A stretch of DNA of 63,804 nucleotides, counting the filler, from Lenisia limosa (lineage: Eukaryota; Protista; Breviatea), in assembly GCA_001655205.1 (NCBI GenBank). It is 6 parts of 6 records of this genome, joined end to end, with 100 filler letters (N's around TTAATTAATTAA, not from the genome) between each part and the next. Parts side by side here need not be neighbours in the genome. Positions count along the whole stretch, not along the records: positions 31,790 to 53,808 come from LPNZ01008244.1; 5 more parts are not named here. One strand, written 5' to 3'. This document shows, piece by piece, positions 1 to 53,508 of the stretch. The notes beneath the pieces were generated by a model. That model was not told where the DNA came from. It made no database searches and was given only the letters and a program-made list of their open reading frames with translations. Position 1 is the first letter of the stretch; each line of letters begins with the position of its first letter. The position numbers were made by a program, and so were the translations under genes.

Positions 1-2616
<2,616 letters not shown>

Positions 2617-36111: not shown

Positions 36112-36117
36112 TTAACC
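36112..36117. repeat. Left target-site duplication TTAACC
   Basis: Identical hexamer at 53503-53508 immediately outside the right TIR. Confidence 0.9.
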
Positions 36118-36156
36118 CATCATAAGCAGCTAACCCGAAAAAGGGGGGGGGGTTTT
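36118..36156 (+). repeat. Left terminal inverted repeat (39 bp)
   Basis: CATCATAAGCAGCTAACCCGAAAAAG10TTTT is the exact reverse complement of 53464-53502. Confidence 0.95.
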
Positions 36157-36749
36157 TTTAGTTTTCAAATTTTCACGTTTTTTCATTTTTGATCACACTC
36201 TATAAAATGGGGACAAAAAGCACCACAGTGAAGGAGTACACCGCCATATGTGTAGCAAGCACCCCAAAAAGCACCGTAAAGCAAAGCAAGGGAAATAATT
36301 CTTAACTTTTATATTTTCATTTTCGATCTCACTCTAACAAAGCACCCAAAAAGCACCATAACAAAACAAAAGCACAACAAAACTTCCTCAGCTAATCTCA
36401 CACTTCATAGTTTTATACGTTACATAACGCATTTTTGGTAAAAAGTATACTGAGACAACCACTTCTCTTGATACCGATTGGGCCTCCCTTGGAAAAGTTC
36501 AAAAAAAATATATATTTCTGTATATAAAATGCCCAGAACAATATCAGTAGTATATAACCAATCCAAAAAATCAGCTATATGAACACAATATTATTATTCC
36601 TATACAAAACATCCAGTTAGATATGGGGACCGCGCGGGGAAAAAAAAGTTTTCAAAAATCGTTGTTTTTTTATAGTAATCACTAATCAATGATCTGTATT
36701 ATTAAATATCTGGAATCACAAATGACAAAATATTTATATATTAAATCAA

Positions 36750-37322
36750 TTAGTATACTTTGTCTTGAGCATCGACAACCTGAGAACCATCAGTAGCAAA
36801 GGTGATTTTATACACTACAACCTTAGAGCCTTTAATAAAACACAACCCGACAGTGGCTTTTTTACTGCATAAAGCGTCTACAGAAAACAAATCCTTAAAT
36901 TCGTCGTATGAAAATTTTTTCAATAAATACCACAGCACTCCAGATTTTTTTGGACACAATTGGTCAACAGATTCATGATGAACTCTCATATAAGAATTAA
37001 TACTTTTGAGTAATTGACTTCTAACTTTCTTAGAATCATCACCAGTACTAACTTTCAAATGAATTTTAAGGAAATTTTTTTCAAATCCTTCGTTTTGTTT
37101 TAATTCTTCTATTAGTCCTTCTTTCGGTTTAACACCAAGAACTTCATCATCAGATACATCTTCATCATCAGATTCATCAGATTCATCAGATTCAACACAA
37201 TTTCTAAAATCTAAATGTAGGTAAAAATTTTTACCAATATGATTAGATAAGCTTAAAATAGTGCCATTTCTTTCCTCTTCCTCGCTTTCAACAATAGAAA
37301 CAACAGCATTAGATATATCCAT
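36750..37322 (-). CDS. Viral hypothetical protein (190 aa) with an acidic SDE repeat
   Basis: The ATG at 37322 (MDISNAVV, A-rich context) is preferred over the upstream start in the ORF track. Contains VESDESDESDDEDVSDDE. Confidence 0.7.
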   Translation of the reverse strand: MDISNAVVSIVESEEEERNGTILSLSNHIGKNFYLHLDFRNCVESDESDESDDEDVSDDEVLGVKPKEGLIEELKQNEGFEKNFLKIHLKVSTGDDSKKVRSQLLKSINSYMRVHHESVDQLCPKKSGVLWYLLKKFSYDEFKDLFSVDALCSKKATVGLCFIKGSKVVVYKITFATDGSQVVDAQDKVY

Positions 37323-37729
37323 ATTTGTTAACCGATAAAAAAACAAACAAAAAAAAACACATAAAAATTCATTCCAATACCTCTTTTTCACTTAGTTTGA
37401 AGCTACAGTTAGAATTTTCAAAAATAGAAATTTTTGTTGAAAAACGGGGCTTAGCCACTAAAACCAGCCAATTCTGACTCATATAATATATGTATAATAG
37501 TATCACTAAACAGTTCCAGGGGGAAAGGGAAAAATCACTTTTTTTGATTTTTTTTTTGAAAAAGTTTTTGAAAAAAATGCAAAAAAGTTCAAAAAAAAAA
37601 AGAAGTTGAATTCATTAATTATTTATTGATTCTATGAAAGGGATTTTTGTTTAACAAAGAGTAACAGCTAGAAAAGAGTCAATAATGTTAAAACTAACTA
37701 TATTTTAAGTTAACGCAACCCCATGTATT

Positions 37730-38785
37730 TTAGATTTCTCGTATATTTCCACTTCGAGTCATTTTCGGAATATGCTGCCTCTGAACATTTTCCTTCTCAA
37801 TTACAGGCAAATAATCAATGTTTGTATGACCTGTATTAAGTAATAGATCCTCTTCATAGTAAAATTTATCATCAGTATCTCCCTTTTCGTAACCTTCACT
37901 TAAATAGTACTGCGTTGGATTTGTTTTTCCACGCTTTGTTGACTTATATATTATAAAGGTTTTTTCACTCCAGTTAGGAGAAACATGCCTGTCACGATCC
38001 ATTCTATTTCCAATAAATTTTCTCACTACATCCCCCACCTTTAATTTTCCTGGGGGTATATCTTTATATTCTTTCTTTTTTGGTTCTGCGTTGTGAAACT
38101 GAAGATTAACTGGTCTTTCATCAGTGGCACTGTGTACCTTGTGATTATACGCCCATACAGTATCCGCTAAATATGGTTGCCAGTCATAATTTACTCGCCC
38201 AGTGTTTAGTTCAATTTTTTTCATACGCTCATAAAACGGCAAACTAATTGTAGCATTGACACGCTCGACATAACTGTTTTCATTTTTCATATATGGCGTA
38301 TTAATTATCAAGTGACTTGGCCTTCCGTTAGGGCATCGTTTTGTTTTTAAATTATCTCTAAACAGTTTATTATCAAATTCTTTTCCTGCATCAGCCTGTA
38401 GTGCGGTTGGCCACTCCTTGCAGTCCGTTAGTATCATGTCTTCAAAGGCTGACCATACTTCCTGAGAGTTAGTTGACTTAATAGGCCGACTCATTAAATA
38501 TCTGCTTCTTACTATGAGGCAGTTTAGGCACAACACCTTCTTGGTACTTCGAGCACTAGCCAAGTAGAGAACATCAATCTGGTATCTATCATAATTGTTC
38601 TGGTACTGTGGGAAATGCACAAAGTTTTTAATTGGTCCCTTAGTCCTTTGGTAGATTTCATGTTCGCCTTGGTCCTTAACAAATGCCTCAACTTCAGCTT
38701 TCGTGTAGTCTAACCCTAATTCTTCAACAACATCGTAAAATCTTCCTGTGAATCCATACTTATTCCATGCTTCAATTAATTCCAT
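37730..38785 (-). CDS. Retroviral-like (rve) DDE integrase, Polinton type
   Basis: D71 (YQIDV), D132 (QADAGKEF), E174 (NSYVERVNATI), AYNHKVHS, and a C-terminal LKVGDVVR...PNWSEKTFII typical of Polinton integrases. Confidence 0.93.
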   Translation of the reverse strand: MELIEAWNKYGFTGRFYDVVEELGLDYTKAEVEAFVKDQGEHEIYQRTKGPIKNFVHFPQYQNNYDRYQIDVLYLASARSTKKVLCLNCLIVRSRYLMSRPIKSTNSQEVWSAFEDMILTDCKEWPTALQADAGKEFDNKLFRDNLKTKRCPNGRPSHLIINTPYMKNENSYVERVNATISLPFYERMKKIELNTGRVNYDWQPYLADTVWAYNHKVHSATDERPVNLQFHNAEPKKKEYKDIPPGKLKVGDVVRKFIGNRMDRDRHVSPNWSEKTFIIYKSTKRGKTNPTQYYLSEGYEKGDTDDKFYYEEDLLLNTGHTNIDYLPVIEKENVQRQHIPKMTRSGNIREI

Positions 38786-38815
38786 TTTAGTGAAACAAAA
38801 AAAATATTTTTTATT

Positions 38816-41800
38816 TTATGTTTTCAGGTTATCTCTAATTTTTTGGATCATTCTCTCTCTGCCCTCTTCAATTCCACACTTCTTATACAACACCTCAAGT
38901 ACCCTTGTGACATGCTTACTCTTACACCTCAGCATACATTTATTTTTGTTGTCAGAAATATTTATCTTGTTTAACAGTTCAGCCACCTCGTCAACAGCCT
39001 CGTATTCAATAATAGGAGCCTTAAACTTTTTTGCTTTAATGGCCATGCGTACATTCACACACTCCAAGTCATTTAAGTCTTTCATAATTTTTATGTACTT
39101 CTTTTCAAATACGTTTTCTACCATAGCAGCACTGAAGTAGTACACTCTACTTAAATAATGAATAGAGTGACAGTTTTCAAACTTCTTAAGCTTGGACTGC
39201 CTACCAGTCTTGTGAAACTGTAGTCTCTTCTCTAGTTTAAGTAAGTCTTCTTGACATGTGTCATCTAGTGATACACACTTACCTAAGTATTTCTTTAAGT
39301 CAATCGTGCTAGTAGTGTCTCCATACATATCGTTCTCATTTGAAACATACTTAGTGCTACCAACATAGCAAGAGATCTCATCTTCATCATTCATTTCGTA
39401 TATAAGGGCTACTCTAATTCTACGAGGCTTTAATTCAACCATCCCTTCATAGTTGTAAGGCTCAAAGACAATGTCTTTAACATTTTCGTAGTCAACAATA
39501 TTTACTTGGCTAATGTCTCTACACCTACTCAAGGCAACATAGAGTGCGTTTTTAGTGAAATATGGTTTCTTATTCCTTAACTCCACATGCACATTATAGT
39601 CACCTTCAATAGTACTACCTTGAACCTTGTGAGCTGTGATTGCGTAGGCCTTATCAAAGAACTCTGCAAACTCTGCTTCAGTTACCAATACGTTGTGGTC
39701 CAACTCCACTCGATCGTCTTGTACACCAGTGACAGTATAAATTTTCGAGTTCCAAATTTCTTTCTTACCTCTGTTAACCTTACCAATGTATTCTTCTCCC
39801 ACAATACTACCAGTGAAGCTGTTATTAATACTGTGCCTCAAACTATTGGTGTAGACAATATTTTTCTTGCACTTGGCCTTAGCTGTTGTATTGAACCCAG
39901 TGATATCACTCAGAGTAATAGTCTCACTTGCTGTAATCTTGTTCATAACTTCCAACGTACTGGGAGTATATCTGTTAGCATTTTCAATGTAGCTAAGTTT
40001 AATTAAATTTTTCATTTCTTGTTTCATCACATTATTATTCTCATAGTCATATGTCTGAACACTAACTGGAGGTAGTTGATTCATATCTCCAAACATAATC
40101 ATTCGTTTGTTCATATTCATAAGGCGACACATGGCGATCACACTTACACTACTGATTTCGTCAAGAAGAATTGTCTCGTAGTGGGCAACATTACTTTTGA
40201 AGAAGCTCTCAAGTGTATAGCTGTTATCACACCCTAGTTTCTTAAGGTTTTGAACAACGTAGTTAGTTGATGATACAACACAACAGTTCTCTGTCTCACC
40301 ATATACTTTGGTAAGCAGTGTTGTTTTACCACATCCAGCTCCGCCCAATACCATACAGTTTTCATTGTTACCAGGCAATTCAGTTACAATATTCCACTGA
40401 CTAAGTGTACATTCGATATCACGCCTTGGGTAGTCAGTACAAAGCAGTCTCTTCAAGTCCATAGGTTTATCCTTGTTGAGACGCAACCTATCTGAGTTCC
40501 TCGAAGCAAACCTCTCAAGTTTCTTGGAGCATTCTTCAAAGTAAATGGCGTCTGTTCTCACAGCTACTACCTCTTCGGGACATACATTAGCAATTTGAAT
40601 TAAGTTAATGAAGTTGGAATGGATAATTTGTCTGAAGATACTGCAGTTATCACTCACTTTACGCGACCTACTTGTGGATTTCACAAAATATAAGTCACCA
40701 ACCTTCTTCACCTTACTAAACATATTTTTCTCCATGAGGTCACGATACTCCAAGAAGTCAACCAAGTTACTGTCTGTACTGGTGTACGAGTTATTTGTTG
40801 CTGTATATTTTTTGTGAAGTGTACCAATGAAGCAGTTTGGCATATTTTTATTGTCCCCTAGTTCATACTTAATGTAGTCGAGCATTAACTTAAAGGTATC
40901 ACCCTTCAGGAATGAATAGGCTTGGATTCTCGCCGTAATTGCCAAGTCCAACTTAAGTGTCTTCAACACGTACTCAATAAAGATATAGTTATAAACTCCG
41001 GGCTTAAATGGAATATGGTTGATAGTGAATTGTTCAGCCACAAAGTACTCTCCACAAACAATATCGTCTGTTGGGTTGTATGTGTAAGGCTGGAAACTAT
41101 CCAAGTTGGTATATACTGGGAAATTATTTGTGTTGCTGTGTAAAATATTCCTATAGCACCTCTTCAAGTCAATTTCATAACATTCAGGTACAGGCATCTC
41201 TTCATCATCTTCATTATATTCTTGATCTGGAGTTTTTACTACACCAGTTATGGGACCAACAAAATTGTTATCAAAAATATTTCTTGTTCCCTCGTTATAG
41301 TACGACACAGGAATTTCACCCACCATACAGTCACACAATTTACGAGCCACTGATGAGTAGGTCATGTGATCGTCTCTAAACTGTTCGAAGGGAAACTTGG
41401 TCCTAATCTTTTTAGTATAGCTTAAGGGACACAGGCTAAACGAGTCAAGGCGTTCAATTAACATGGGACATTCTTTATTGGGATAAACCATTAGAGACAC
41501 TTCCATCCGTGAGTCAAAGTCCAAACTATTAATTTGAGTTCCTGTTGTTTCGTGAATAGCAGCAACAATTGGTTCAAGAGGATTTTTAATAATAATTCTT
41601 CTGTAACCTTTCGTGTAGTAGTCCATCATTTCCTTTTCAGAAAAGCCATAGACATCTTCACTACTGAGGTCCAGTGTTTTAGGGTTTAAGTCTTGAATTT
41701 CAATCATTCTGTCCTTGCCAGCCAGTGTGCGTATGTCGCCATTACCATACAATATTTGCTGAATAACGTCTACGTCAGTAATGAGGTCGACATGGTTGTT

Positions 41801-42976
41801 GTTCACATATATACAAATTACGTTGTCAGTTTTTTGGGACTTGTCATGTTTGTTGTACCGAACTAGTACCTTCTTGTCAGGTCCAACTACATAGGCCGTA
41901 ACACTCGGATACCTGTCAGTCCAAACATCTAGGTCCCCAATAGAATAATTACAGTCCTTACCAACAACCTTGTTGAAGTCATTAAAGAATTCAGGTTTAC
42001 TCATTGTTTTGAAGGGAGATCGGAACTTACACTTATCCCATAATATGGTAACTAAGCACTTGCCGTCCTCACTTGGAACATAGTAGTTTAAAAATTCCTG
42101 TTTCAAGACTTCTTGACCAATCAGTAAAGCATTAATATTGATTTTGTTAATGGGATGAATATTTAAAACTTCAATGAGTTCTACTTTGCCTCCACTATCA
42201 ATGAATCCATCCTCTCTGTCAAGTTCCTTCTGGACTGCAAACTGTAACTTAACGTTTTCAATCCCTGTATCCATGTCTTTTGGCACAAAGAATTGTTCTA
42301 CTGACTGCCATCTCGTCTTAGTGGTACCCAAACGATCTTCACCTCCGTCCTCTGGTTTAAATTCATAAAGCACAGTGACTCTGTAGAGATTATGGGTCTC
42401 AAACTTAGCTACATTATCAATGATTCTTGTTAATTCAGCAGGAGTAAACTTCTGGAGATTTACAACGCCTAAGGTATCATAGTTGTCCTCCAAAAGCTGT
42501 GTGATACGCGATAAGTCATTGGTTCTTACACCTCTGGTAGCTCCTAAGTTTTTAGTGTAATCACTCTTCTTAGTAGCAGCTCTAGTCTTACGCAGTTTAT
42601 CAACAGCATTCTTAACGTTCTTGACGGTTTTATTGTTCAAGACAATATTGTTATCCTTAGCGTATTGCTGGTACTTGTAGTCATTGGTTGTCTTATCAAT
42701 TGGATCAGCCCTAGCCCTTCTTGTACCCTTTAATATATTTGTAAAGTCAGGAGCAGTGTTAGCTCTCTGTTTTTGTTTCTCTTCAATAGCTTTCATTTGT
42801 TCCACTATAGCTAAATATTCTCTCTGACTAATCTTATGGCTAGTCGTATTGTTTGAATACTTGTTGTTATAGAGATCAATGTTGGCTTCTTTAATTTTGT
42901 TTTTTTTGTAGGCAGTTACTCCCTCAGAGGGGTCAATAACCTTTTTACCGTACCTGTGCAATTGGGTGTTTTTCAT
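38816..42976 (-). CDS. 1386-aa replication protein: OTU-like domain, derived family-B polymerase, SF1 helicase, GIY-YIG-like domain
   Basis: PolB motifs EIDLKRCY (D603), KNMPNCFIG and VRTDAIYF (D809). SF1 motifs GGAGCGKTT, LLDEIS, FGDMNQLPPV, AYAITAHKVQGST and LYVALSR. C-terminal IYE...CYVGST...RLQFH. N-terminal PSEDGKC (C307) and NNHVDL (H395). Confidence 0.85.
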   Translation of the reverse strand: MKNTQLHRYGKKVIDPSEGVTAYKKNKIKEANIDLYNNKYSNNTTSHKISQREYLAIVEQMKAIEEKQKQRANTAPDFTNILKGTRRARADPIDKTTNDYKYQQYAKDNNIVLNNKTVKNVKNAVDKLRKTRAATKKSDYTKNLGATRGVRTNDLSRITQLLEDNYDTLGVVNLQKFTPAELTRIIDNVAKFETHNLYRVTVLYEFKPEDGGEDRLGTTKTRWQSVEQFFVPKDMDTGIENVKLQFAVQKELDREDGFIDSGGKVELIEVLNIHPINKININALLIGQEVLKQEFLNYYVPSEDGKCLVTILWDKCKFRSPFKTMSKPEFFNDFNKVVGKDCNYSIGDLDVWTDRYPSVTAYVVGPDKKVLVRYNKHDKSQKTDNVICIYVNNNHVDLITDVDVIQQILYGNGDIRTLAGKDRMIEIQDLNPKTLDLSSEDVYGFSEKEMMDYYTKGYRRIIIKNPLEPIVAAIHETTGTQINSLDFDSRMEVSLMVYPNKECPMLIERLDSFSLCPLSYTKKIRTKFPFEQFRDDHMTYSSVARKLCDCMVGEIPVSYYNEGTRNIFDNNFVGPITGVVKTPDQEYNEDDEEMPVPECYEIDLKRCYRNILHSNTNNFPVYTNLDSFQPYTYNPTDDIVCGEYFVAEQFTINHIPFKPGVYNYIFIEYVLKTLKLDLAITARIQAYSFLKGDTFKLMLDYIKYELGDNKNMPNCFIGTLHKKYTATNNSYTSTDSNLVDFLEYRDLMEKNMFSKVKKVGDLYFVKSTSRSRKVSDNCSIFRQIIHSNFINLIQIANVCPEEVVAVRTDAIYFEECSKKLERFASRNSDRLRLNKDKPMDLKRLLCTDYPRRDIECTLSQWNIVTELPGNNENCMVLGGAGCGKTTLLTKVYGETENCCVVSSTNYVVQNLKKLGCDNSYTLESFFKSNVAHYETILLDEISSVSVIAMCRLMNMNKRMIMFGDMNQLPPVSVQTYDYENNNVMKQEMKNLIKLSYIENANRYTPSTLEVMNKITASETITLSDITGFNTTAKAKCKKNIVYTNSLRHSINNSFTGSIVGEEYIGKVNRGKKEIWNSKIYTVTGVQDDRVELDHNVLVTEAEFAEFFDKAYAITAHKVQGSTIEGDYNVHVELRNKKPYFTKNALYVALSRCRDISQVNIVDYENVKDIVFEPYNYEGMVELKPRRIRVALIYEMNDEDEISCYVGSTKYVSNENDMYGDTTSTIDLKKYLGKCVSLDDTCQEDLLKLEKRLQFHKTGRQSKLKKFENCHSIHYLSRVYYFSAAMVENVFEKKYIKIMKDLNDLECVNVRMAIKAKKFKAPIIEYEAVDEVAELLNKINISDNKNKCMLRCKSKHVTRVLEVLYKKCGIEEGRERMIQKIRDNLKT

Positions 42977-43029
42977 GTTGCTTCTAATTTATGGAAAAAA
43001 AAATAATTATTTTAGTTTTGAAAACAATG

Positions 43030-43356
43030 TCATTTTTTGCAACTAGCACAAAGCTTACATGGTCGACCATATTTCTTCTTAATTATTGTGTCACCGCACT
43101 TTGCACATTTGTTCAGTTTAGCGACTTCTTTGTCGTATACTTCTTGGCAGTCCTTGATGTTATGAAATTTTCGCATGTGTGTTTTATATGTTTCTTTTGT
43201 TTTATAGTCCTTATCACAAACGTGACAGGTGTATGGTTTTACCACTTGTGGTTTACATTTTCCTGTTTCAGCAGATTTAGCAGTGTGATAAAAGTACGCT
43301 GATCGAGAGAAGGGTTCGTTACAATCGGGGCAGTTTTTGTAAAATGGTTTTGTCAT
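43030..43356 (-). CDS. Small viral zinc-finger protein (C2H2 plus extra Cys pairs)
   Basis: CPDC...H, CHVCDKDYKTKETYKTHMRKFH (canonical C2H2), CAKC and CKLC. Confidence 0.8.
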   Translation of the reverse strand: MTKPFYKNCPDCNEPFSRSAYFYHTAKSAETGKCKPQVVKPYTCHVCDKDYKTKETYKTHMRKFHNIKDCQEVYDKEVAKLNKCAKCGDTIIKKKYGRPCKLCASCKK

Positions 43357-43453
43357 GCTTTTAAGATTTTTTAATTTTAAAAAATGATATTTTAAAAATA
43401 TATTTTTTTCGGAACTTATTTTTTAAATATATTTTGTATAAAAAACAGAAGAC

Positions 43454-43912
43454 ATGTCATTCCTAGACTTCGTAAAGAACGGTAGTGCCGCTACTACTAC
43501 CACCAATGCTACTAAAATCCCAAATTATGAGGATTGCGTTAAACCTAATGAAACATACTGCTTGCACAACTACACCAAAACTAAGAACAGTAATGGAAAT
43601 TATTATATGATCTTAAATTATTCCAAGGACGGTATTAAAGACAATGCTGAAGCTATGTTCGCTCATCCCTGTATGTTCAGAGAAGTAACTGCAGCATTTA
43701 AACATAAATCAACTGCCTTAGAAGAGAATTATAAAAATGCCTTTGTGTACTTCAAGTATATTGGTAAAACAAAGAAACTACTTAAGTATGTTATCAGATG
43801 TGAAAAGGGTGAACAATGTGCTCCGAGTTTTGGACTAGTCGATGTCGGAGATAGTGATAGTGATAGTGATGAACAACCCGAATATACTAAGTGTAGCGAT
43901 AGTGATGATTAA
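43454..43912 (+). CDS. Viral hypothetical protein, candidate ssDNA-binding protein
   Basis: Intact ORF with an A-rich start. Tyr/Phe/Lys-rich strand-like core and a strongly acidic tail (DSDSDSDEQPEYTKCSDSDD). The function is inferred. Confidence 0.6.
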   Translation: MSFLDFVKNGSAATTTTNATKIPNYEDCVKPNETYCLHNYTKTKNSNGNYYMILNYSKDGIKDNAEAMFAHPCMFREVTAAFKHKSTALEENYKNAFVYFKYIGKTKKLLKYVIRCEKGEQCAPSFGLVDVGDSDSDSDEQPEYTKCSDSDD

Positions 43913-43983
43913 ATAAAAAAATATTTTTTTTGGACTCCACTAAAGTTGTTTTGGTATATGCCAATAAAAAAAAATTTTTTTTT

Positions 43984-44388
43984 TTACATAAATCTTTCAG
44001 GTTTGATATACCGAATATTCTTTTTTAAGTAACGATCGCACTGCTTAAGCATACCAGTTACATCTTTGCCATGTATAAACTCGTCATAGTTATTAGTTCT
44101 AGCACTACACTTACCATAGCTACACAGGTCCCAAGACAGATCCCAGAGGTTAATGCAATCACCCTTCCATAAATCCATTTGGGCCATAATTTCTTTCATT
44201 GAAAAATAATTATTGGACTGCCTACAAAACATGCTAGCAGTTTCATCTGAGTGTAGTACTCTCTTATTAAGGTATGCTCCAAAATTTACCAGGAAGCCTT
44301 CAGTGTCTTCAAGTAATGCACATGTGTGTCTACGGATAAAATCCATATCTCTTATGTTGTCAATATTAAAATTACAATCGTTCGACAT
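43984..44388 (-). CDS. Viral hypothetical protein (134 aa)
   Basis: Intact ORF between intergenic palindromes, starting in an A-rich (AAGAAGATG) context. No motif recognised. Confidence 0.65.
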   Translation of the reverse strand: MSNDCNFNIDNIRDMDFIRRHTCALLEDTEGFLVNFGAYLNKRVLHSDETASMFCRQSNNYFSMKEIMAQMDLWKGDCINLWDLSWDLCSYGKCSARTNNYDEFIHGKDVTGMLKQCDRYLKKNIRYIKPERFM

Positions 44389-44451
44389 CTTCTTTTTTTA
44401 TAGTTTAAAAAAATGATAAAAAATATTTTTTAAAAAAGTAACTTTTTTGGA

Positions 44452-45765
44452 CTACTCGATAAACTTGTTAATAGTCTCGATGTTGTGTTCAGGATTATCT
44501 TCCTCGAAGTACTGATACAGATTATAGTACGGTATGGTCTTCAGCATATTGTAAACTGCAATACAGTAGTAGCCACACAGTGCTGTGTCATCATTTTGTA
44601 TTTGAATATCATTTCGAATAATTTGTTTATCCGCAAAATTGTTGGTAATCAGTTCCTCATCAGCTATACTACCGAAACTATCAAAGTAGAACCACAGCTT
44701 ACTATTTAGCTTGTAAAGCAGTACCCAGTGTACACCACCAGTTGTGTCTATACCGTCTTTAGTCTTCTTCATGTTACCAGTATTAATGATTGCTCCCAGA
44801 GTATCTTTTTTGGCAAAGTATTCTTTAATACCTTTTTCATCACTCATAAAGGTTTTTATATTGTACTTCTCCTCTATCTCTCTGTTACTGAGTGCAGGTG
44901 CATCAATACCAATATCTGGTTCTATGTCTTCTTCTTCTTCTCCTTTGTTGCTGTAAATCTGTTCAACATCATATAACTCGTTACGTACTATTACGTCCTT
45001 GTCAGCTTTTAACCCTTGCTTCATTCGCGGTTCTAATAGAGAGCCAATTAGTTTCCAGTGACCAGCTCTAACACGTGTGTGCTTAATCCTGTCTTGAGGG
45101 AAAAAGGCAATACATGGCTTGTCCTCCTCGTTATCAAAGGCATTGATGATTTCATTTCCAAACTTCACACTACGAACTCTACTCAGCCCCATGTTTTCTC
45201 CGATGAAGGTTGCAACCGCTATTTGGCTGTCATTCATGTGTCCAAACGAATAGAACGCCTTGGCATTTTCCTTGATTTCATTGAAGTCCATTCTACCATT
45301 CTTCCACTTGTGTACCACAATGGTTGGACTGATATTGAAGTGCCTGCCACTCGTGAACAAGGGAGAGATTTGTTTTATAACATCCTTGTGTACTATGTCA
45401 TCAAATATAACTTCATAGCTGATTTCATCTGGATGGTCTTTAGCTGCATCTGCTGCTTTTTTCTTAATAAACTCATAGTCTATACTTGTTGAGCTTAAGT
45501 CAATGATGTCTAATTTAATATTTCTTTCGGTTGCTAGTTCATCCAGTGTTTTTAATATGGGTTGGTCAGTTGAGGTCGTATATACCAAGTACCCTGTAGA
45601 CTTCCTGTCTTGAAGAACGTCAAATACTAAATGAAAAGTTTTTCCACTACCTGTTCCTCCAATCATAACTGTACCGAAACAGCCATCTGGAGTAAATTTA
45701 GAGCGATGGACTTTTTGGACTTTGTTTTGATCGTCCAATAATACTTGCTTTTTAGAAATTGTCAT
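44452..45765 (-). CDS. A32/FtsK-HerA packaging ATPase fused to an adenain-type cysteine maturation protease
   Basis: Walker A GGTGSGKT (K42), Walker B VIFDD and LFTSGRHFNIS. Protease GVHWV (H346), FYFDSFG (D362) and QNDDTALCGYYC (Q390/C397). Confidence 0.9.
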   Translation of the reverse strand: MTISKKQVLLDDQNKVQKVHRSKFTPDGCFGTVMIGGTGSGKTFHLVFDVLQDRKSTGYLVYTTSTDQPILKTLDELATERNIKLDIIDLSSTSIDYEFIKKKAADAAKDHPDEISYEVIFDDIVHKDVIKQISPLFTSGRHFNISPTIVVHKWKNGRMDFNEIKENAKAFYSFGHMNDSQIAVATFIGENMGLSRVRSVKFGNEIINAFDNEEDKPCIAFFPQDRIKHTRVRAGHWKLIGSLLEPRMKQGLKADKDVIVRNELYDVEQIYSNKGEEEEDIEPDIGIDAPALSNREIEEKYNIKTFMSDEKGIKEYFAKKDTLGAIINTGNMKKTKDGIDTTGGVHWVLLYKLNSKLWFYFDSFGSIADEELITNNFADKQIIRNDIQIQNDDTALCGYYCIAVYNMLKTIPYYNLYQYFEEDNPEHNIETINKFIE

Positions 45766-45812
45766 TTTGTAGAAAATAATTTTATAAATATAATTTACAA
45801 AAAGAGTAAAAA

Positions 45813-47573
45813 ATGAAATCAGACCCAGAGAAGGAAAAATCTCGTGCGTTGAAAATACGAGAGCTCAACCAACTATTAGGGTTAGAGTACGCTTACCGTG
45901 ATGAAAGGTACGCCAGTGTTCTCGATGAAAATGGGAATATAAATAAGACTGCCACCAATGCTGTTGCAAAAGTACATAATAATGCAGCTAAAGCTAAAGC
46001 TGAAATTATAAAGGATGAAAACTTTAAGTATAACTCAGCGATGGAACAAAACAAGGCCATACGTGAGGACGTTGAAGATATTAAGGATATACTTGCTGAA
46101 AAACAATCTCAAAAAAAGTCTGTGGTGACAAGTGCATCGGGACCTGAATCTGAACCCGAACCTAAAAGAAAATATCAAAATAAACCCATGGCTCGCATAG
46201 TTGACATGAGTAATAAACCACGTAAACAAGGTGTGAACAAAACTAGCAGTAATCTGGAACCCATGATGTATAATAGTAGAAATGTCGTAAAGAAGACCAC
46301 CAAACCGAACTATGACGGCAAAGAGTTTAACTCTGCCGAAGATGCAGTTCTCCAGTTTATGGAATTTAAGAACAGTAAATCAAAGTATGATGGGTGGAGA
46401 CGAACACCTCCCGGTAAACTTACCAAGGACAACCCGTATATTTCCTTTAAGGTTAAAAACGAATATGCAGATTTTACTCCAAACGAATTTAATGAAGTAA
46501 AGCAGTACATACAGAAAATTAGAAACATTCACACGAATCACTTTGGTATGTGGCTCTTCCAAATTATTAAATATGATAAGGATGTTATTTCAAGTGAGGA
46601 CTTAAAAAGAGATTATCCAGACAATTACGAAGGTTGGGGACGTACTGAAGAAGAGTTTGCAGAGGCCCAGAGCAGGGAATGGGTGGAGAGGACGTTTGAG
46701 AAAGCTAGGAAGAGAAGAGAATTGGAAGCTAAGGAACAAGATGAAGCGTTCGCACAATTTGAAAAGGACAATGTCGACCCAACATGGTCACCTGAGGGGG
46801 AGGAGTACAATGGTAGACAACAGGAAGCTACAATGGATCGCCTCCAAATGAATAAACTTGATATTGTGTTATTAGGCAGTACTATTGCCAAAAAGATAAG
46901 CGAAGTTGTCGACCTAATTGACATAACACCTCGAGACTTCTTCTACATTATCTGGGAGTCTAGACAAGATGTAAATCCTGAAGGACGTAAAGCTTTGGAA
47001 GCTTTTATTGCTTCAACTGATGAAATAGAAGGTGCAGGTAAAAAACAAAAAAATAGACGTGGTAAAAGTCACAACTCTATGTGTATTTATCAGGATGGTA
47101 CACTTGGAAAACTTAAGTTTAATATGGGTGAACTACTCTTTAATAACTTTGCTAGTTGTACTGACCAGGACGGTAACGTTGTGTTGAATGAGGCAGTAAG
47201 TCCGCACATTACCGGGTTCTTAACAACAATGCATAGTACTAAGTACAAAGATATCAGCAAGGAAGATAGAGATCAGATTAGGAAAATTGTTGTTAAAGCT
47301 GATATTATTCCGAATAAAAATAATTCAAAGTTTAAACTAATTGCTGAGGATCACGAACCTTTGTTGATTCCAAAGAAGGCTACTAAAAAGTTCCTGAAAG
47401 AAAAGTTTAATGAACTCGTTGGAATTTATGCACAAGGTAATGGCGAACCTGGTAGTAACATCCATGATAACTTGCTCCGGATTATTAAGGAGTTAGAAGA
47501 GAGAGACACTAAACCTAGTGAAATTACTATGATGAAGAGAAAGATGATGGGCGGACAGAGATTCTTCTTCTGA
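45813..47573 (+). CDS. Viral 586-aa protein, candidate core/virion protein
   Basis: Long intact charged ORF with adenain-consensus sites IEGA|G and MMGG|Q. The C-terminal ELVGIYAQGN...IIKEL helix is reminiscent of conserved uncharacterised Polinton proteins. Confidence 0.7.
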   Translation: MKSDPEKEKSRALKIRELNQLLGLEYAYRDERYASVLDENGNINKTATNAVAKVHNNAAKAKAEIIKDENFKYNSAMEQNKAIREDVEDIKDILAEKQSQKKSVVTSASGPESEPEPKRKYQNKPMARIVDMSNKPRKQGVNKTSSNLEPMMYNSRNVVKKTTKPNYDGKEFNSAEDAVLQFMEFKNSKSKYDGWRRTPPGKLTKDNPYISFKVKNEYADFTPNEFNEVKQYIQKIRNIHTNHFGMWLFQIIKYDKDVISSEDLKRDYPDNYEGWGRTEEEFAEAQSREWVERTFEKARKRRELEAKEQDEAFAQFEKDNVDPTWSPEGEEYNGRQQEATMDRLQMNKLDIVLLGSTIAKKISEVVDLIDITPRDFFYIIWESRQDVNPEGRKALEAFIASTDEIEGAGKKQKNRRGKSHNSMCIYQDGTLGKLKFNMGELLFNNFASCTDQDGNVVLNEAVSPHITGFLTTMHSTKYKDISKEDRDQIRKIVVKADIIPNKNNSKFKLIAEDHEPLLIPKKATKKFLKEKFNELVGIYAQGNGEPGSNIHDNLLRIIKELEERDTKPSEITMMKRKMMGGQRFFF

Positions 47574-47575
47574 TA

Positions 47576-47593
47576 AAAAAAAATATTTTTTTT
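47576..47593. terminator. A8-TA-T8 palindrome between convergent viral stop codons, representative of an element-wide motif
   Basis: Perfect 18-bp palindrome filling most of a 22-bp gap between convergent genes. Similar palindromes occur in most viral spacers. The terminator role is inferred. Confidence 0.5.
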
Positions 47594-47595
47594 AT

Positions 47596-48306
47596 TTAGA
47601 CCTTCGTAGTATACAGCTCCTCATAGAAAGGAACGTGAGGAAACATTCTATGTCTACCATAGCCCTCCTTTCGTTTGCTGTAAGGCAAGGATGAAAGTCC
47701 TCCTTTTTTGTTGTAAGGTAGTGTTGAAAGTCCACCATTAAATTTACCTTTGCCGTATTTATCATAGGCATAGTCAGCAGCTTTAGTAGCTACATAAGAA
47801 GCAGCAAAGGCCGCAACTGGACCGAAGCCACCTTGTTTGTAATAGTCACCACTACCCATATCGACATCATCACCATCATCGCCCATACTTTCCTGTGCTT
47901 TGTCCTTGTAGTACTTAACTTCATCCTTAAGTGAGTCGATTTGATCAACATAACCGGCTACTTCTTTTGCTATAGCAGCTGGGTCACTCTTAACTCGCTC
48001 TACAAAGTCTGCAACAGTGTCTTCAAATGTGTCAACATTTTGTTCAATTTTATCTGCATATTTTAGTCCTTTTTCAATTGATGCAGCAAAAGGAACTTCT
48101 TCTTTAATTGTGTCAACAACCTCACTTGCTATTGGGTTCTTACGTACTTCCTTACTAATTTTGCGTCCGGTATTCGCAGCCTGTTTTACAGTGCTCCTTG
48201 CCTTCTTCGCGGTTTTCTTTAGTTTCTTGAACAAACCCTCTCCCTCATATTCGTAGTTGAAATCATCATCGCTGAAATCATCATCCTCTGGTTCAAAAAA
48301 TGACAT
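47596..48306 (-). CDS. Viral 236-aa protein, candidate protease-matured membrane-penetration or core protein
   Basis: Acidic leader (aa 1-23), then EGE|GLFKKLKKTAKKARSTVKQAA (basic amphipathic helix). Several GG and GxG sites at the C-terminus. Confidence 0.7.
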   Translation of the reverse strand: MSFFEPEDDDFSDDDFNYEYEGEGLFKKLKKTAKKARSTVKQAANTGRKISKEVRKNPIASEVVDTIKEEVPFAASIEKGLKYADKIEQNVDTFEDTVADFVERVKSDPAAIAKEVAGYVDQIDSLKDEVKYYKDKAQESMGDDGDDVDMGSGDYYKQGGFGPVAAFAASYVATKAADYAYDKYGKGKFNGGLSTLPYNKKGGLSSLPYSKRKEGYGRHRMFPHVPFYEELYTTKV

Positions 48307-48380
48307 TGTTTTCGAAATATTATACTCTTTTTGAAAAAATATATTATTTTAAATTATTTTAAAAAAGAACCAAATTAAAA

Positions 48381-49808
48381 ATGTCAACGAACTTTATTGA
48401 ATCCATGTTGCGTGTCGATGACAAGAGCCATGATATTACGGTCGAAAGTGTTATTGACCACCAAATAGAAAATACTACTTCACAAAATGAACCAACTGTA
48501 ACTTTTAAGTTAAGTACAGACGCGTCTTCATTCATTGAAACAAGTACTCTCTCTATTTATTGGAGAGAAAAATTAGAACTAGCAAATGGAGGCGTTTATA
48601 ATCTTGCAGCTACTACTGCTGTTGACGATACTGCTGAAGCTATATCTGGAAAACAATCCTTCGTCTATGCTAATTCTTATCACCAAATTAAGTCAATTAA
48701 AATATACAGTAATGGAACAGATATCTTACCTCCTGTTGATAATTCTACTGCAGGGATTATAGCGGATAACTATATGGATAAATATTACACTAATGACTAC
48801 TTGGATACAACTGGCCTTACTGAATTTGTTTTCAATCCAAGAAGTGAGAACACTGCTGCTCTCGGTAAAGCCGTTTATATTGGTGGTAATTATGTTGAGC
48901 GTGAAATTTTGCTTCCAGTGTTGTTCCCATTTATGAAGACTAATCCCGTTTTACCTCCCTCTTCGTCATATATGTTTGAGATTACTTTCAGAGACTCTTC
49001 AGAAAGTATTTGTAAAACCAGTGATGCTGCACTTCCTGTAAAGATAGACCGTGAAAAGGTTGTGCTAAAGAATCGTAAAATTAAATTGTCAGATAAAGGC
49101 AGAGCAGCTTACTTGCAAGGACTTTCCATTATTGACGATAAAATTGTACACACATACCTTCATCAAAGGATTTCAAATCCTGTACAAATAGGGTCAGCTA
49201 AGGTTACTGAGACTAGTACTTGTAATGTTGACAATCTCGCAACAGCGATAGACACTAAGGTTATTGATTGGGGTGCTTCTAGGGCAACTGGAACCTATGT
49301 GACAAGAAGGCTGAAAAGTCATCAGGTTGACATTGGTATTGATACATTTCCTAGGAATGGATATGAGAACAAGCTTGCCACCAATGATGTATTCAATTCT
49401 TATGTCCGTTATAGACGTGCGTGTATGAATTCAAGCGCTACACACAAAGATGTAGTGTTAACTATTAAGGACTTTAAAAATGCAAACGGAAAATGGCTCG
49501 ACTGTATTGACGTGTTACCAGACCGGATTCATCGCCAATTTCTGACAACTACCAATAATCAAGTTATTGATAAAATTGAGTTAGAAAATGCACCTGGGAA
49601 TTCTAATACTTATTTGTACACTTGTACGTTTGGTGATGCTGTCCTACTGTATGATGGAAAGCAAAGTGGAAATTTTAAAACTATTTATACCAAAACTCCA
49701 CTGGAAAACAATCCAAAATTGGATGTTAAGAAAACTATGCGCCAAAACAAAGCAGCAATGAAAGCAAGGAATGCTAACCCTAATGCTGAAACAGAAATTG
49801 AGAGCTAA
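48381..49808 (+). CDS. Major capsid protein (double jelly-roll, Polinton-like)
   Basis: 475 aa and beta-rich. VTFKL...FIETSTLSIYWREKL, HQIKSIKIYSNGTDI and LLPVLFPFMKTNPVLPPSSSYMFEITF follow the Polinton MCP pattern. It lies in the structural module near penton and fibre. Confidence 0.75.
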   Translation: MSTNFIESMLRVDDKSHDITVESVIDHQIENTTSQNEPTVTFKLSTDASSFIETSTLSIYWREKLELANGGVYNLAATTAVDDTAEAISGKQSFVYANSYHQIKSIKIYSNGTDILPPVDNSTAGIIADNYMDKYYTNDYLDTTGLTEFVFNPRSENTAALGKAVYIGGNYVEREILLPVLFPFMKTNPVLPPSSSYMFEITFRDSSESICKTSDAALPVKIDREKVVLKNRKIKLSDKGRAAYLQGLSIIDDKIVHTYLHQRISNPVQIGSAKVTETSTCNVDNLATAIDTKVIDWGASRATGTYVTRRLKSHQVDIGIDTFPRNGYENKLATNDVFNSYVRYRRACMNSSATHKDVVLTIKDFKNANGKWLDCIDVLPDRIHRQFLTTTNNQVIDKIELENAPGNSNTYLYTCTFGDAVLLYDGKQSGNFKTIYTKTPLENNPKLDVKKTMRQNKAAMKARNANPNAETEIES

Positions 49809-49858
49809 ATAATAAATTATTAAAAATTTAAAAAATATTTTTTTTTATATTTAAAAAA

Positions 49859-50506
49859 ATGTCATATCCGAAAATACCAATTCAAGATAATCCATACCTA
49901 CCTTCTGCACCACCACTTACAAAATCCGCATCTATCTTACTTAAATGTGGGTGTAGTGTAGCATATGAAGATAGAAAAAAACCATGCATTAAACACAACG
50001 ACAAAAAGAAGTTGATTGAACTTACACTAGATGAGGAACGTGGTGCAGAAAAAATTGTTCCTGATGAGTTAATCAAATATAACGAATTTAAGGCTTGTGC
50101 CCGAAAATATTTTAATGTTAAGGACATCTACAATTCCGAAAGCGACAAGGTTGAGGTGTTCATCATCCAGAAAAATAAATTTGTAAAGAGAAAGAGTAAC
50201 TGGATAAAAATTGATGAAAATAAAATCCAGGAATACACCAGTTATATGGTTAGTGAACAAGGGACTACGGATATGGAGTTGTGTGTAAAACAACACGGTA
50301 AGGCTGTCAAGGTTCTAACTAACAAAGAGTACAGAGAAGGGTTGCGCAAGCAGAATGGGCAACTTAATATTTCAAGTATCTATAAAAAAATAACAAAACG
50401 AGGTCTCCTCATTGGAACAGGCACAGTTATAGCGTTTTTTCTTAACCCTGTCCTTGGGGCTTTCACTGCCTTTTCTGGGGGTGTCTATGAAAATACAAAA
50501 AAATAA
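49859..50506 (+). CDS. Viral 215-aa protein with an N-terminal PSAP motif and a C-terminal hydrophobic segment
   Basis: MSYPKI...YLPSAPPL at the N-terminus and LLIGTGTVIAFFLNPVLGAFTAFSGGVY at the C-terminus. Confidence 0.7.
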   Translation: MSYPKIPIQDNPYLPSAPPLTKSASILLKCGCSVAYEDRKKPCIKHNDKKKLIELTLDEERGAEKIVPDELIKYNEFKACARKYFNVKDIYNSESDKVEVFIIQKNKFVKRKSNWIKIDENKIQEYTSYMVSEQGTTDMELCVKQHGKAVKVLTNKEYREGLRKQNGQLNISSIYKKITKRGLLIGTGTVIAFFLNPVLGAFTAFSGGVYENTKK

Positions 50507-50550
50507 AGCAATTTAAACCTTTAAAAATATATTTTTTTTGAAATAAAACA

Positions 50551-51306
50551 ATGAGACAAATACAATTTACGTTCCAAGGTGCTGAAGGCGAAATTAATTT
50601 TAACCCCGCACTGAGAGTAGAAGAAAATTCAAGGATACGACTGAACTTACTAACTTTCCCAAATTACATATACAACATACATCCAGATAACAATGAAGTG
50701 TCAGTTACATACATGGGGACTACGTACACGCGTAACATTCCAACAGGAGTGTACTCAAACATGGCACTGATGAATGACACATTAAATACATTATTTTATC
50801 CTGAACTACCTGTTAACTGGGTAGTTATCGGTACTAATGGTTCATCTTACAAGGTAGGGTTTATGCTACTTGATGGAGTAACACTAGATCTGAAAAATTT
50901 AGGTAAATTCTTTGGGTTTTCTAATGGGGTATTGGTTGGAACTACAGAAATGACTTCATCAGTGGTTGATGGAGTACTAGTTAATGCAGTCACAAATAAA
51001 TTGTATACAGCCGATCAATTTCCAGACATGTCTAATGGAGTTGATGTAGTTTACATTCGGTGTAACCTGGTTAAAACCCAATTTAATAATGACAAGTACT
51101 CTGAAATATTGGAAATTATGCCATTCACTGGTAACACAGGAGATTTGATAAGCTATACACAAGAAAACCTCAGTAACGTTGCAAAACCGATGAAAACAAA
51201 TGTGGTGAATAGCGCTAAAATTAGTTTAGGTGATAAAGCTGGTAATTTACTCTACTTTGGAAGCGGATTAAACGACTACACAACTGTTGTATTAATTATA
51301 GAATAA
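50551..51306 (+). CDS. Minor capsid (penton) protein, single jelly-roll
   Basis: YNIHPDNNEV...IPTGVYS...LNTLF and VYIRCNLVKTQF...SEILEIMPF are characteristic of Polinton/PLV/virophage pentons. Confidence 0.85.
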   Translation: MRQIQFTFQGAEGEINFNPALRVEENSRIRLNLLTFPNYIYNIHPDNNEVSVTYMGTTYTRNIPTGVYSNMALMNDTLNTLFYPELPVNWVVIGTNGSSYKVGFMLLDGVTLDLKNLGKFFGFSNGVLVGTTEMTSSVVDGVLVNAVTNKLYTADQFPDMSNGVDVVYIRCNLVKTQFNNDKYSEILEIMPFTGNTGDLISYTQENLSNVAKPMKTNVVNSAKISLGDKAGNLLYFGSGLNDYTTVVLIIE

Positions 51307-51334
51307 ATAAAATATTTTTTTTTATATTAAAAAA

Positions 51335-53188
51335 ATGGAACTACCAAGTGGATGGATTACGAGTGGGTCAATAAAAAATGGGACCACTGCTTCTGGAGAG
51401 ACCGTATCTTCTGTAGCAGGACCTGCCGGGATTGGGTTTAATTTAGATGATGATTTAAACTTTGATATTGGTGGAAAGAAATTGGTGAACGTCGCTTTGC
51501 CTGAAAATGATGGTGACGTATGCACTAAAAAATACGTAACAGAAAAAATAATTGAAGACAATATATTAGACGCTACTGCCATACAGAACAGTGCCAACAC
51601 TATTGGTGCTCAAATTACAGCGTTAAACACTACACAAGCTGGAGTTTATGATGATAAAATTTTACCAGCATATAATCACTCAGTTGAGGAGCATTTTGAA
51701 CCGCAGTTATTTCAAGACCATCTCACTGCCCACTTTGCCGGAACATACTNNNNNNNNNNNNNNNNNNNNNNNNNNNNNNATTTAAAAGTAGAAGGTGACT
51801 TTGAAGCAACTGGTTTCAAAATTACTCAAAGCGATATAGTTTATAATAATAGAACGTGGGCAACCCAGTATAACAGTGATCCTGTTGACAACATTGTTTT
51901 CAATATGAAATCGCCAAATGTTTTCAATGTTAGAAGTATCTCATTAACTCTGGAAGCAAGTAAAATTTCTGATGGAAGTAGATGTGGCGCTGATGATGTA
52001 ACTGTTATCTTATCCATCAATAGTGTTGTTAAAGTTCAATTAAATAATTATAAGTTTACCTCATGGGGACTGAATACTATAGCAATAGCTGATGTGAACA
52101 ATCCCATTCAAATTAATGCTAATGATATTATACAAATTGAAATGATAAATAATTCTGCTGATAGAAAAATAGTAACTAAGTTTCAAGACAAAATTGACGC
52201 TGAATTTATTAGTTTGAACATGGATGGAGATTTATCAATCGAAAAAATGATTGAGCTCAGGCTTGTTGGAATTGAAATTGATACATCTACAATACTAGCC
52301 ACCGAATGGGATGAAGGTGAAGGAAGACATATTCTAAATGTAAGTGAACGATTAAAATTAGGTGCTTTTGATAACGTTGAAACTGAAATGAATACAATGA
52401 GTGACCGAATTGATAGTGTAGAACTTAATAATACCAATCAAGACATATTTATTGCTGATCATAGCACTCGGATTACTAATTTAGAAGCTGCAGGTGGTAC
52501 TGATTTAACACCGCTTGAAAACAGAATAACAACTGTTGAAGGAACTTCTAATACAAACAGTGGAACCATCACTAATATTAATTCAACCCTTGGAAACCAT
52601 ACAACTTCCATAACTGGTCTAAATACAACAGTAAATCCTTTTATGGGATACTTTAACACAATCAAAGAAAAATTTAACAAGATGTTAGAATTACATAGTG
52701 TAATAGGACATATGGCTGCTCAATTCCAAACTACAGGACCTGCTGCTATTCCTAATGGTCAATTAACTACACATATTCCTTTTGAAGCTGGTTCTAATAT
52801 ATCAGGTTATGTCGAGGGATTAACCAACGCTTCAACAGGGAAAATGTTAATATTAAAGGATTGTTTATTTCTTATTGAAGCAAACTTATACTTTGATAAT
52901 AGTTTAGACGTGTCTAACACAGGTAGTCTAAATCTTGCAATAGCAGTTAATGGTGAAAGTAATTGGATGCAAACCGTTAGGTCCCATGAAACAGCACCAA
53001 CTTTCACTATAAATAGTTCCAAATTAATGAACTTATATGCTAACGATGAAATTCAGTTAGTTATGGATCATAATAATCGAGATGGGTTGACACATGGTAA
53101 TAACACTTACTATACACATTCTTCATGGTCTTTGACTATTATCCAGCCTAAAGAAATGAATAGTTTATCACCCATATCAGACTATTAA
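51335..53188 (+). CDS. Fibre/spike protein with a coiled-coil stalk and C1q-like head; frame across the 30-N gap unverified
   Basis: Fibre collar motif KLVNVALPENDGDVCTKKYV, heptads (RIDSVE..RITNLE..RITTVE), and a C-terminal TGKMLILKDCLFLIEANLYF...IAVNG...SSKLMNLYANDEIQLVM. Confidence 0.7.
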   Translation: MELPSGWITSGSIKNGTTASGETVSSVAGPAGIGFNLDDDLNFDIGGKKLVNVALPENDGDVCTKKYVTEKIIEDNILDATAIQNSANTIGAQITALNTTQAGVYDDKILPAYNHSVEEHFEPQLFQDHLTAHFAGTYXXXXXXXXXXXLKVEGDFEATGFKITQSDIVYNNRTWATQYNSDPVDNIVFNMKSPNVFNVRSISLTLEASKISDGSRCGADDVTVILSINSVVKVQLNNYKFTSWGLNTIAIADVNNPIQINANDIIQIEMINNSADRKIVTKFQDKIDAEFISLNMDGDLSIEKMIELRLVGIEIDTSTILATEWDEGEGRHILNVSERLKLGAFDNVETEMNTMSDRIDSVELNNTNQDIFIADHSTRITNLEAAGGTDLTPLENRITTVEGTSNTNSGTITNINSTLGNHTTSITGLNTTVNPFMGYFNTIKEKFNKMLELHSVIGHMAAQFQTTGPAAIPNGQLTTHIPFEAGSNISGYVEGLTNASTGKMLILKDCLFLIEANLYFDNSLDVSNTGSLNLAIAVNGESNWMQTVRSHETAPTFTINSSKLMNLYANDEIQLVMDHNNRDGLTHGNNTYYTHSSWSLTIIQPKEMNSLSPISDY

Positions 53189-53463
53189 ATAAAGAATATA
53201 TTTTTTTTGAGTTACTATCAAAGGGGAGGCACCACGTTCTTTGTTTTGTCTTTTATATTATTGCTCTGTTGATGTTTGTTATAAGAGGTGATTTGAGGTA
53301 TTGGTATCCAACTTAAATCCTCATATAGTTCATGCTTGAGGTGTGTCTTTTTGTGTTGTCGCGTGCGTTTTGCGTTGTTCTGTGTAAGGAGAGGTGATTT
53401 TAATGGGATGTTGCATTGGCGTCCATTCTGAAAAAAAAAAGTTTTGAAAAAAAGTAATTATTT

Positions 53464-53502
53464 AAAACCCCCCCCCCTTTTTCGGGTTAGCTGCTTATGA
53501 TG
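53464..53502 (-). repeat. Right terminal inverted repeat (39 bp)
   Basis: AAAAC10TTTTTCGGGTTAGCTGCTTATGATG is the exact reverse complement of the left TIR. Confidence 0.95.
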
Positions 53503-53508
53503 TTAACC
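53503..53508. repeat. Right target-site duplication TTAACC
   Basis: Matches 36112-36117. Confidence 0.9.

Follow-up and report, generated by a model that had tools for sequence, protein, structure and literature searches.

An endogenous, probably young Polinton-like virus in Lenisia limosa with predicted packaging ATPase and maturation protease domains in one protein

Endogenous Polinton-like viruses (PLVs) are common in protists, so that meeting one here is in itself no surprise. The window, by which we mean the whole stretch of 63,804 nucleotides that was analysed (six parts of the Lenisia limosa genome assembly GCA_001655205.1 joined end to end), holds a 17,385-bp element at positions 36118-53502, inserted in the chromosome of a microbial eukaryote whose genes are rich in introns. 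We read this element as a recently inserted, latent, still virion-competent PLV in which a predicted packaging ATPase and a predicted maturation protease form one protein, and we put the probability of this reading at roughly 0.7. That the element is a real endogenous PLV we hold with high confidence, and to judge by its sequence it probably can still form virions. A preliminary description of the locus had called it an intact, endogenous Polinton-like element, and with the morphogenetic genes all present this identification stands.

The element is bounded by 39-bp terminal inverted repeats (TIRs), the left one at 36118-36156 on the plus strand, starting CATCAT, and the right one at 53464-53502 on the minus strand. 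They are complementary at 39 of 39 bases, the similarity stops at base 40, and each abuts a copy of the hexamer TTAACC (36112-36117 and 53503-53508), giving the combination of TIRs and a 5-6 bp target site duplication (TSD) that is characteristic of classical Polintons/Mavericks. Between these ends, 15,453 of 17,385 bases (89%) are coding, in 13 intronless, non-overlapping open reading frames (ORFs) that begin with ATG and encode 108-1386 aa, 12 of them at least 134 aa. The GC content is 35.4%, versus 42.4% in both flanks, and falls to 0-19% in the 10 short internal spacers; most genes have spacers of 22-97 bases. The perfect TIRs, the TSD and the AT-rich spacers of the preliminary description were thus all recovered. 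Its 12 uninterrupted ORFs are indeed intronless and number 13 in our count, but the fibre ORF contains a 30-base run of N, so that it is open on either side of the run and an uninterrupted frame is unproven. The shortness of the TIRs, also singled out at the time, is unusual: Polintons have TIRs of several hundred bp (PMC12220804), and the means given for Halocafeteria elements are 485 and 808 bp (10.64898/2026.07.28.741278).

The most distinctive gene is ORF7 (44452-45765, minus strand, 437 aa), which encodes an A32-like packaging ATPase (residues ~21-225), an acidic linker and a CE-clan, adenain-like protease (residues 286-437, with H346, D362, Q390 and C397). The ATPase half matches Pfam Pox_A32 over its cut-off (E 1.4e-6). 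The model of residues 286-437 superposes on the adenovirus protease 4wx4 with Z 10.7 and rmsd 3.2 over 137 aligned residues and on poxvirus I7L with Z 10.4, other CE-clan proteases scoring equal or slightly higher. Both domain assignments made in the preliminary description are therefore upheld, and the pairing of an A32-like ATPase with an adenain/Ulp1-like protease expected of a Polintoviricetes-like virus is present, here within one ORF. A search with ORF7 among proteins of 240-765 aa returned three matches: ORF7 itself, a 411-aa protein (P0010) and one stand-alone protease. P0010 is 39% identical to ORF7 over 98% of its length, and since it matches both halves (at 40% and 46%), the fusion is common to two elements and is not a chance read-through.

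To our knowledge, packaging and proteolytic maturation in double-jelly-roll (DJR) viruses are the work of separate proteins. Our literature searches found no description of an ATPase-protease fusion; the supplements of PMC10120064 and bioRxiv 10.64898/2026.06.19.733378, which may list the element, were outside their scope. Scans of metagenome collections, which need exact peptide words and let distant relatives escape, gave no match to the ATPase-protease pair in JGI and one match to its alignment in IMG/VR, a stand-alone protease in another PLV fragment. That fragment (L002:1-4303) is a different PLV with a capsid-like ORF beside the protease, and its capsid does not match that of the element. 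Because two elements at 39% identity have both retained it, this natural fusion gives direct access to the questions of whether the protease acts at the packaging vertex and how packaging and maturation are timed.

The element also carries a candidate set of virion proteins. ORF10 (48381-49808, plus strand) encodes the DJR major capsid protein (MCP) that had been claimed for it: its ESM Atlas model reaches a TM of 0.72 over 386 residues to a PF21738 DJR-like cluster, with predicted models on both sides of the comparison. Polinton-type DJR clusters rank first for this model (score 1307-1383), and a cluster containing the Sputnik MCP comes last of the eight rows listed (665) at a similar TM (0.72). 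A single-sequence AlphaFold model of ORF10 was poor (pLDDT 32.6). The word-indexed sequence search found no relative of ORF10, and an exhaustive search of 1.84 billion representatives found four, of which only P0012 (469 aa, 35% identity) is full length; the others are three fragments (P0013-P0015). P0010 and P0012 both lie on 11,215-base contigs and so probably belong to one sister element.

These relatives bear on the possibility that the element is a self-synthesising transposon that moves only within the cell, its capsid module owing its intactness to nothing more than the youth of the insertion. In keeping with such an account, no virion is reported to have been seen for Maverick-Polintons (bioRxiv 10.64898/2026.06.19.733378), and the capsid fragments P0013-P0015 are shorter and diverged, so copies do decay. 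Against this, the MCP and the fused ATPase-protease are both full length, with their motifs, in the second element at 35-39% identity, which points to long selection on the virion module, and a fibre would be useful only outside the cell. We therefore consider the transposon explanation improbable, and retain the virion-competent PLV.

The remaining structural candidates are encoded on the same strand as the MCP. ORF12 (50551-51306, 251 aa), lying between the MCP and the fibre, is likely the penton (minor capsid protein), as predicted models suggest. Profile searches and a PDB sequence search with ORF12 were both empty. It was predicted to form a ring-like, head-to-tail homo-oligomer with a score of 0.64, the best of three controls scoring 0.01, and the runs agreed in at least 93% of contacts with pLDDT of at least 79. 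In calibration, 21 of the 30 solved pairs reached the self-binding mark and none of the 23 single chains did; the ORF12 prediction used four copies, unlike the calibration, and its pass may reflect likeness to solved pentons. ORF13 (51335-53188, 617 aa if read through the N run) is likely a fibre by its PHROG matches (tail fibre, E 1.4e-4; tail, E 2.8e-6). PDB sequence searches with the penton, integrase and MCP found nothing, and IMG/VR scans with the MCP, the MCP alignment, the penton, the integrase and ORF1, bound like those above to exact peptide words, returned no relatives.

For integration and replication, the element encodes an integrase and a replicase. ORF2 (37730-38785, minus strand, 351 aa) is an rve-type DDE integrase, as first described and as in classical Polintons/Mavericks, with DDE motifs (candidate triad D71, D132, E174), a sub-cut-off match to Pfam rve (E 4.8e-4) and a match to the IS481 transposase family (E 2.9e-5). 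ORF3 (38816-42976, minus strand, 1386 aa) is a pPolB-S1H replicase in which follow, in order, a vOTU domain (C307, H395), palm motifs A (D603), B (K710) and C (RTD, D809), a superfamily 1B (SF1B) helicase (878-1151; RecD/Pif1 matches, E 1.6e-13) and, at the C-terminus, a GIY-YIG-like motif. The vOTU, palm and GIY-YIG calls are motifs conserved in P0003 and P0004, with no profile match behind them; these two proteins, at 31% and 24% identity, are the only relatives of the replicase found among 5.8 billion proteins. This is the architecture of the Tlr1-like helicase. There is no DNA_pol_B_2 match and no canonical stand-alone pPolB with exonuclease (PF03175 type), and with its palm motifs fused to an SF1B helicase the element is not a group 1, or classical, Polinton. 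The PolB named in the preliminary description is thus not the canonical Polinton enzyme but a pPolB fused to an SF1 helicase. Likewise, of the two fusions then held to be unusual, that of ATPase and protease keeps this standing, P0010 being the only other full-length carrier found, but that of polymerase and helicase is no mark of novelty, having been described as Tlr1-like helicase or pPolB-S1H (PMC5499653, PMC11161782 section 9) and reported from several groups of PLVs as well as from group 2 Mavericks (bioRxiv 10.64898/2026.06.19.733378).

In a JGI metagenome scan the replicase alignment matched 15 loci with identities of 23-31%, no other gene of the element being present at any of them, and the corresponding IMG/VR scan returned one unrelated helicase piece. 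Among the JGI loci, L004-L013, L016 and L017 hold pPolB-S1H genes at 23-29% identity, many split across frames and probably decayed endogenous copies; L007 has an open frame of 1401 aa, and L003 has a neighbour of 1850 aa.

Where, then, does the element belong? Tlr1 of Tetrahymena and the PLVs with a Tlr1-like helicase share with it the rve integrase, the vOTU-palm-SF1B helicase-GIY-YIG replicase with a motif C that lacks its first Asp, the MCP, the minor capsid protein (here a candidate), the packaging ATPase and the TIRs (PMC5499653, PMC11161782). Tlr1 is described as lacking a maturation protease (PMC5499653); the element has a protease domain, fused to its ATPase, and is therefore not Tlr1. 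Group 2 Maverick-Polintons/Polintoviricetes, including Gosseviruses and VC35, have in common with it a four-gene morphogenetic module with a cysteine protease, the rve integrase, a 6-bp TSD and, often, a helicase-polymerase fusion in place of pPolB (bioRxiv 10.64898/2026.06.19.733378). In contrast to them, the element has an MCP without sequence similarity to any large cluster, TIRs of 39 bp in place of several hundred, a protist host and the ATPase-protease fusion, and it gave no phospholipase match. The S1H-encoding MELD viruses of Capsaspora, Trichoplax, Physarum and Powellomyces resemble it as mid-size linear dsDNA elements with an S1H replicase in microbial eukaryotes; the available text of PMC8502044 mentions no fused ATPase-protease, and this comparison is one of descriptions. 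Virophages and transpovirons (Sputnik, mavirus) share the protease, the ATPase, integration (mavirus) and terminator-like hairpins after genes, and transpovirons have pPolB-S1H, but the MCP model ranks Polinton-type DJR clusters first by score, at TM values close to that of the Sputnik-containing cluster, and no virophage MCP match to ORF10 was found in Pfam.

The Maverick-Polintons/PLVs of Metamonada, among which an MCP group has been described (PMC10120064) and which remain unplaced (bioRxiv 10.64898/2026.06.19.733378), also have anaerobic protist hosts and MCPs recognisable by structure alone, a likeness of description rather than of sequence. Closeness to the many-copy trichomonad elements seems disfavoured, because the MCP search gave no large family. 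A literature search on Polintons in anaerobic lineages found nothing naming polintons. On these comparisons the element combines a replicase of Tlr1 type with the workings of a Polintoviricetes virus and is likely a new, barely sampled Polintoviricetes-like lineage; the suggestion of a new lineage in the preliminary description is supported by the near lack of sampled relatives (one full-length for the MCP, two for the replicase). What sets it apart is the fusion of ATPase and protease, this near lack of relatives and the possible latency signals described below; intact PLVs of protists have been described before, as has the replicase fusion. With only one of 1.84 billion representatives matching its MCP at full length, the element fills a gap among those elements of anaerobic protists that remain unplaced.

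The intactness of the element also speaks to its age. Across 13,782 coding sites there are no stops, and with 4.84% of substitutions creating one, neutral divergence is at most about 0.45%. Since full-length relatives of the replicase, the ATPase-protease and the MCP align over 97-98% of ORF length, the intactness of these three ORFs does not follow merely from how ORFs are defined. In a DNA run (X1), the left flank occurs in two variants (34820-35620), between which there are 12 substitutions over 220 bases, 9 over 135 and 26 over ~296, about 5-9% with indels. The two variants could reflect a highly heterozygous diploid or two strains. Set against that divergence, the stop bound indicates that the flank variants probably separated long before the insertion took place, unless selection has kept the element intact, and a probably young element, as proposed earlier, is what we find.

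A less welcome explanation is that the assembly joined these host flanks, through the 39-bp repeat, to a virus that is free or to a copy residing elsewhere in the genome. The assembly is of short reads with many gaps, and the X1 contigs at the junctions end within the TIR, the interior of the element not being traced in X1. Such a join is hard to reconcile with the same hexamer standing in both flanks exactly at the TIR edge, or with all 12 ORFs that were looked up lying on one ENA contig of 29,212 bases, longer than the element. Both flank-TIR junctions, moreover, occur among X1's own contigs: one contig (35619-36147) crosses the left junction and reaches 30 bases into the element, and another joins the right flank to the TIR. 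A single X1 contig covers 35805-36105. The chimeric assembly that had been named as the danger to the preliminary description is, on this evidence, very unlikely.

A possible sign of latency comes from ORF1 (36750-37322, minus strand), which encodes an acidic protein of 190 aa of no family and has a 407-bp upstream spacer. In a polyA RNA run (X2), a sister run that was not selected through ORF1, contigs span 36779-37319 of the ORF, and 8 of 10 records are at least 99% identical; these contigs give neither strand nor level. X2 has no contigs on the adjoining host DNA (34601-36707) or on the integrase or replicase, and almost no words of 44000-53800, which is not evidence of silence. We regard ORF1 as a candidate latency gene. 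A single expressed, uncharacterised gene is likewise described in the TsV-N1 system (PMC12220804), and Tetraselmis PLVs are woken by a giant virus (10.1101/2025.10.09.676808). One ORF1 contig (37188-37319) has a 24-base end from deeper in the ORF, from a template switch or a circular form; a spliced leader was considered for this loose end and rejected, as it is the internal piece 37188-37211. An identification of ORF1 as IFRD (ESM Atlas feature score 0.92) was not accepted, the model having a pTM of 0.27 and TM below 0.4.

Poly-T terminators are used by poxviruses and asfarviruses, and most genes of the element end in a comparable way. A run of at least six T lies within 40 nt past the stop in 11 of the 13 ORFs, the exceptions being ORF1 and the integrase (shuffles: mean 1.26, 0 of 5000 reaching 11; host windows: 93 of 2204), and an A-run/T-run palindrome occurs in 9 of the 12 spacers (shuffles: mean 4.4, 7 of 1000 reaching 9); the palindrome and T-run pattern was picked after inspection of the data, so that these statistics are somewhat flattering. 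The palindrome is found once in 44.9 kb of host DNA. It is present in both convergent spacers and missing from two of the three divergent ones, behaving like a two-way terminator; one candidate lies in a convergent spacer at 47575-47593, and similar palindromes begin at 38797, 43915, 43966, 44418, 49830, 50523 and 51309. Terminator hairpins in virophages and transpovirons have been read as a sign of giant-virus transcription (PMC7031253). We take the chances that the element depends on a giant-virus helper to be about even.

The same signals can be understood otherwise. An autonomous nuclear polintovirus with the same genes would rely on host RNA polymerase II for its transcription and on stress for its induction, needing no helper virus, the palindromes then being compact viral polyadenylation or termination signals read by the host. 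The element does encode its own polymerase-helicase, integrase and zinc-finger protein, ORF1 is present in polyA RNA, and the capsid genes of certain endogenous PLVs are expressed where no giant virus can be detected (PMC12220804). The near absence of the palindrome from 44.9 kb of host DNA tells against this, as does the promoter room of only 22-97 bases of spacer that most genes have. We rate the autonomous alternative a serious competitor, somewhat short of an even chance.

Starting from what was observed, namely the ends, the TSD, the ORFs, the catalytic motifs, the fusion in two elements and the RNA contigs over ORF1, we propose a life cycle for the latent PLV whose steps we infer. The rve integrase would insert the linear genome and leave the 6-bp duplication, and the provirus would rest while the long region upstream of ORF1 keeps that gene transcribed. 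Upon induction, the vOTU domain may free a terminal-protein domain, and pPolB-S1H would copy the genome from its CATCAT ends by protein-primed strand displacement, using its own helicase; we take these ends to resemble those of adenoviruses, with their jumping-back start. The capsid protein, penton and fibre would form an icosahedral particle. Through the fusion the protease would either sit at the packaging vertex or be freed by self-cleavage in the acidic linker, and DNA packaging would so be coupled to the cleavage of core proteins. For the remaining genes, which have T-run palindromes and short spacers of A/T only, transcription would most likely fall to the RNA polymerase of a co-infecting giant virus, at about even odds.

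Several points weigh against this reading. We see no evidence of a giant virus infecting this host; the palindromes are both short and weakly folding (about -1 to -8 kcal/mol), and terminators rich in A/T might just as well be read by the polymerase of the host itself. The ORF7 model is weak (mean pLDDT 49.5), the integrase's rve match lies under the curated cut-off, and the fibre ORF carries its unread gap. The palm domain of the replicase is known by motifs alone, and its motif C lacks the first Asp, which is taken as a sign of inactivity in PMC5499653, an active polymerase being predicted despite it in PMC11161782. The left-junction contig is one base short of the bridging threshold, and X1 may itself be the source of the assembly. 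No virion or excised genome has been seen, and no empty-site joint occurs among the X1 contig joints.

Young and intact as it probably is, the provirus has an orphan gene that is transcribed and terminators resembling those of giant viruses, and DNA and RNA runs exist for its host; this makes it a candidate for induction, which could lead to giant viruses infecting anaerobic protists. A further step would be that the element founds an undescribed integrating DJR virus lineage of anaerobic protists, marked by a single ATPase/protease protein and by 39-bp ends like those of adenoviruses. Such a virus would lie dormant, expressing one gene, until a giant virus of an anaerobic protist, itself yet to be found, switched it on, and would act as a provirophage-like defence element of the anoxic world. 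This is speculative, and we think it rather doubtful.

The other genes of the element are less informative. Profile searches gave no family for ORFs 1, 5, 6, 8, 9 and 11. ORF4 (43030-43356, minus strand, 108 aa) encodes a C2H2 zinc-finger protein (Pfam zf-C2H2, E 2.9e-5), and no function is assigned to ORF5 (43454-43912, plus strand, 152 aa) or ORF6 (43984-44388, minus strand, 134 aa). ORF8 (45813-47573, plus strand, 586 aa) is a possible core protein by two motifs, IEGAG at 405 and MMGG at 578, that resemble the adenain consensus. ORF9 (47596-48306, minus strand, 236 aa), helical with a glycine-rich tail and only weak coiled-coil matches, is possibly a core or membrane-active protein; at its end two 33-base direct repeats (47674-47739) encode GGLS-LPY-KK twice, possible protease sites. 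ORF11 (49859-50506, plus strand, 215 aa), basic with a hydrophobic C-terminal segment, may be a membrane or core protein.

The host genes in the flanks are interrupted by short introns, in agreement with the intron-rich host of the preliminary description. They include a pyruvate:ferredoxin oxidoreductase (PFOR) gene with many short introns (window 1-2200; one exon matches PDB 6cin at E 6.5e-9 and TIGR02176 at E 9.9e-11) and a piece of a phosphoglucomutase gene. PFOR fits an anaerobic or facultatively anaerobic protist, without proving it. By tblastn, no further copies of the element's genes were found in the host part of the window. A host ORF at 32424-32912 has the DDE-transposase-like wording LLLDGHSS, with no Pfam match at E 0.01, and is possibly a pogo/Tc1 remnant.

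The scaffold joins of the window lie at 19678-19777, 31690-31789, 53809-53908, 58166-58265 and 60200-60299 (100 bases each: 44 N, 12 letters, 44 N), and the element falls entirely between two such joins; 306 bases separate its right end from one of these. Just inside its ends, the subterminal regions (36160-36400 and 53260-53430) are non-coding and asymmetric, and the left one contains short repeats (36180-36207 and 36314-36341) that are 86% alike, with recurring AAAGCACC words.

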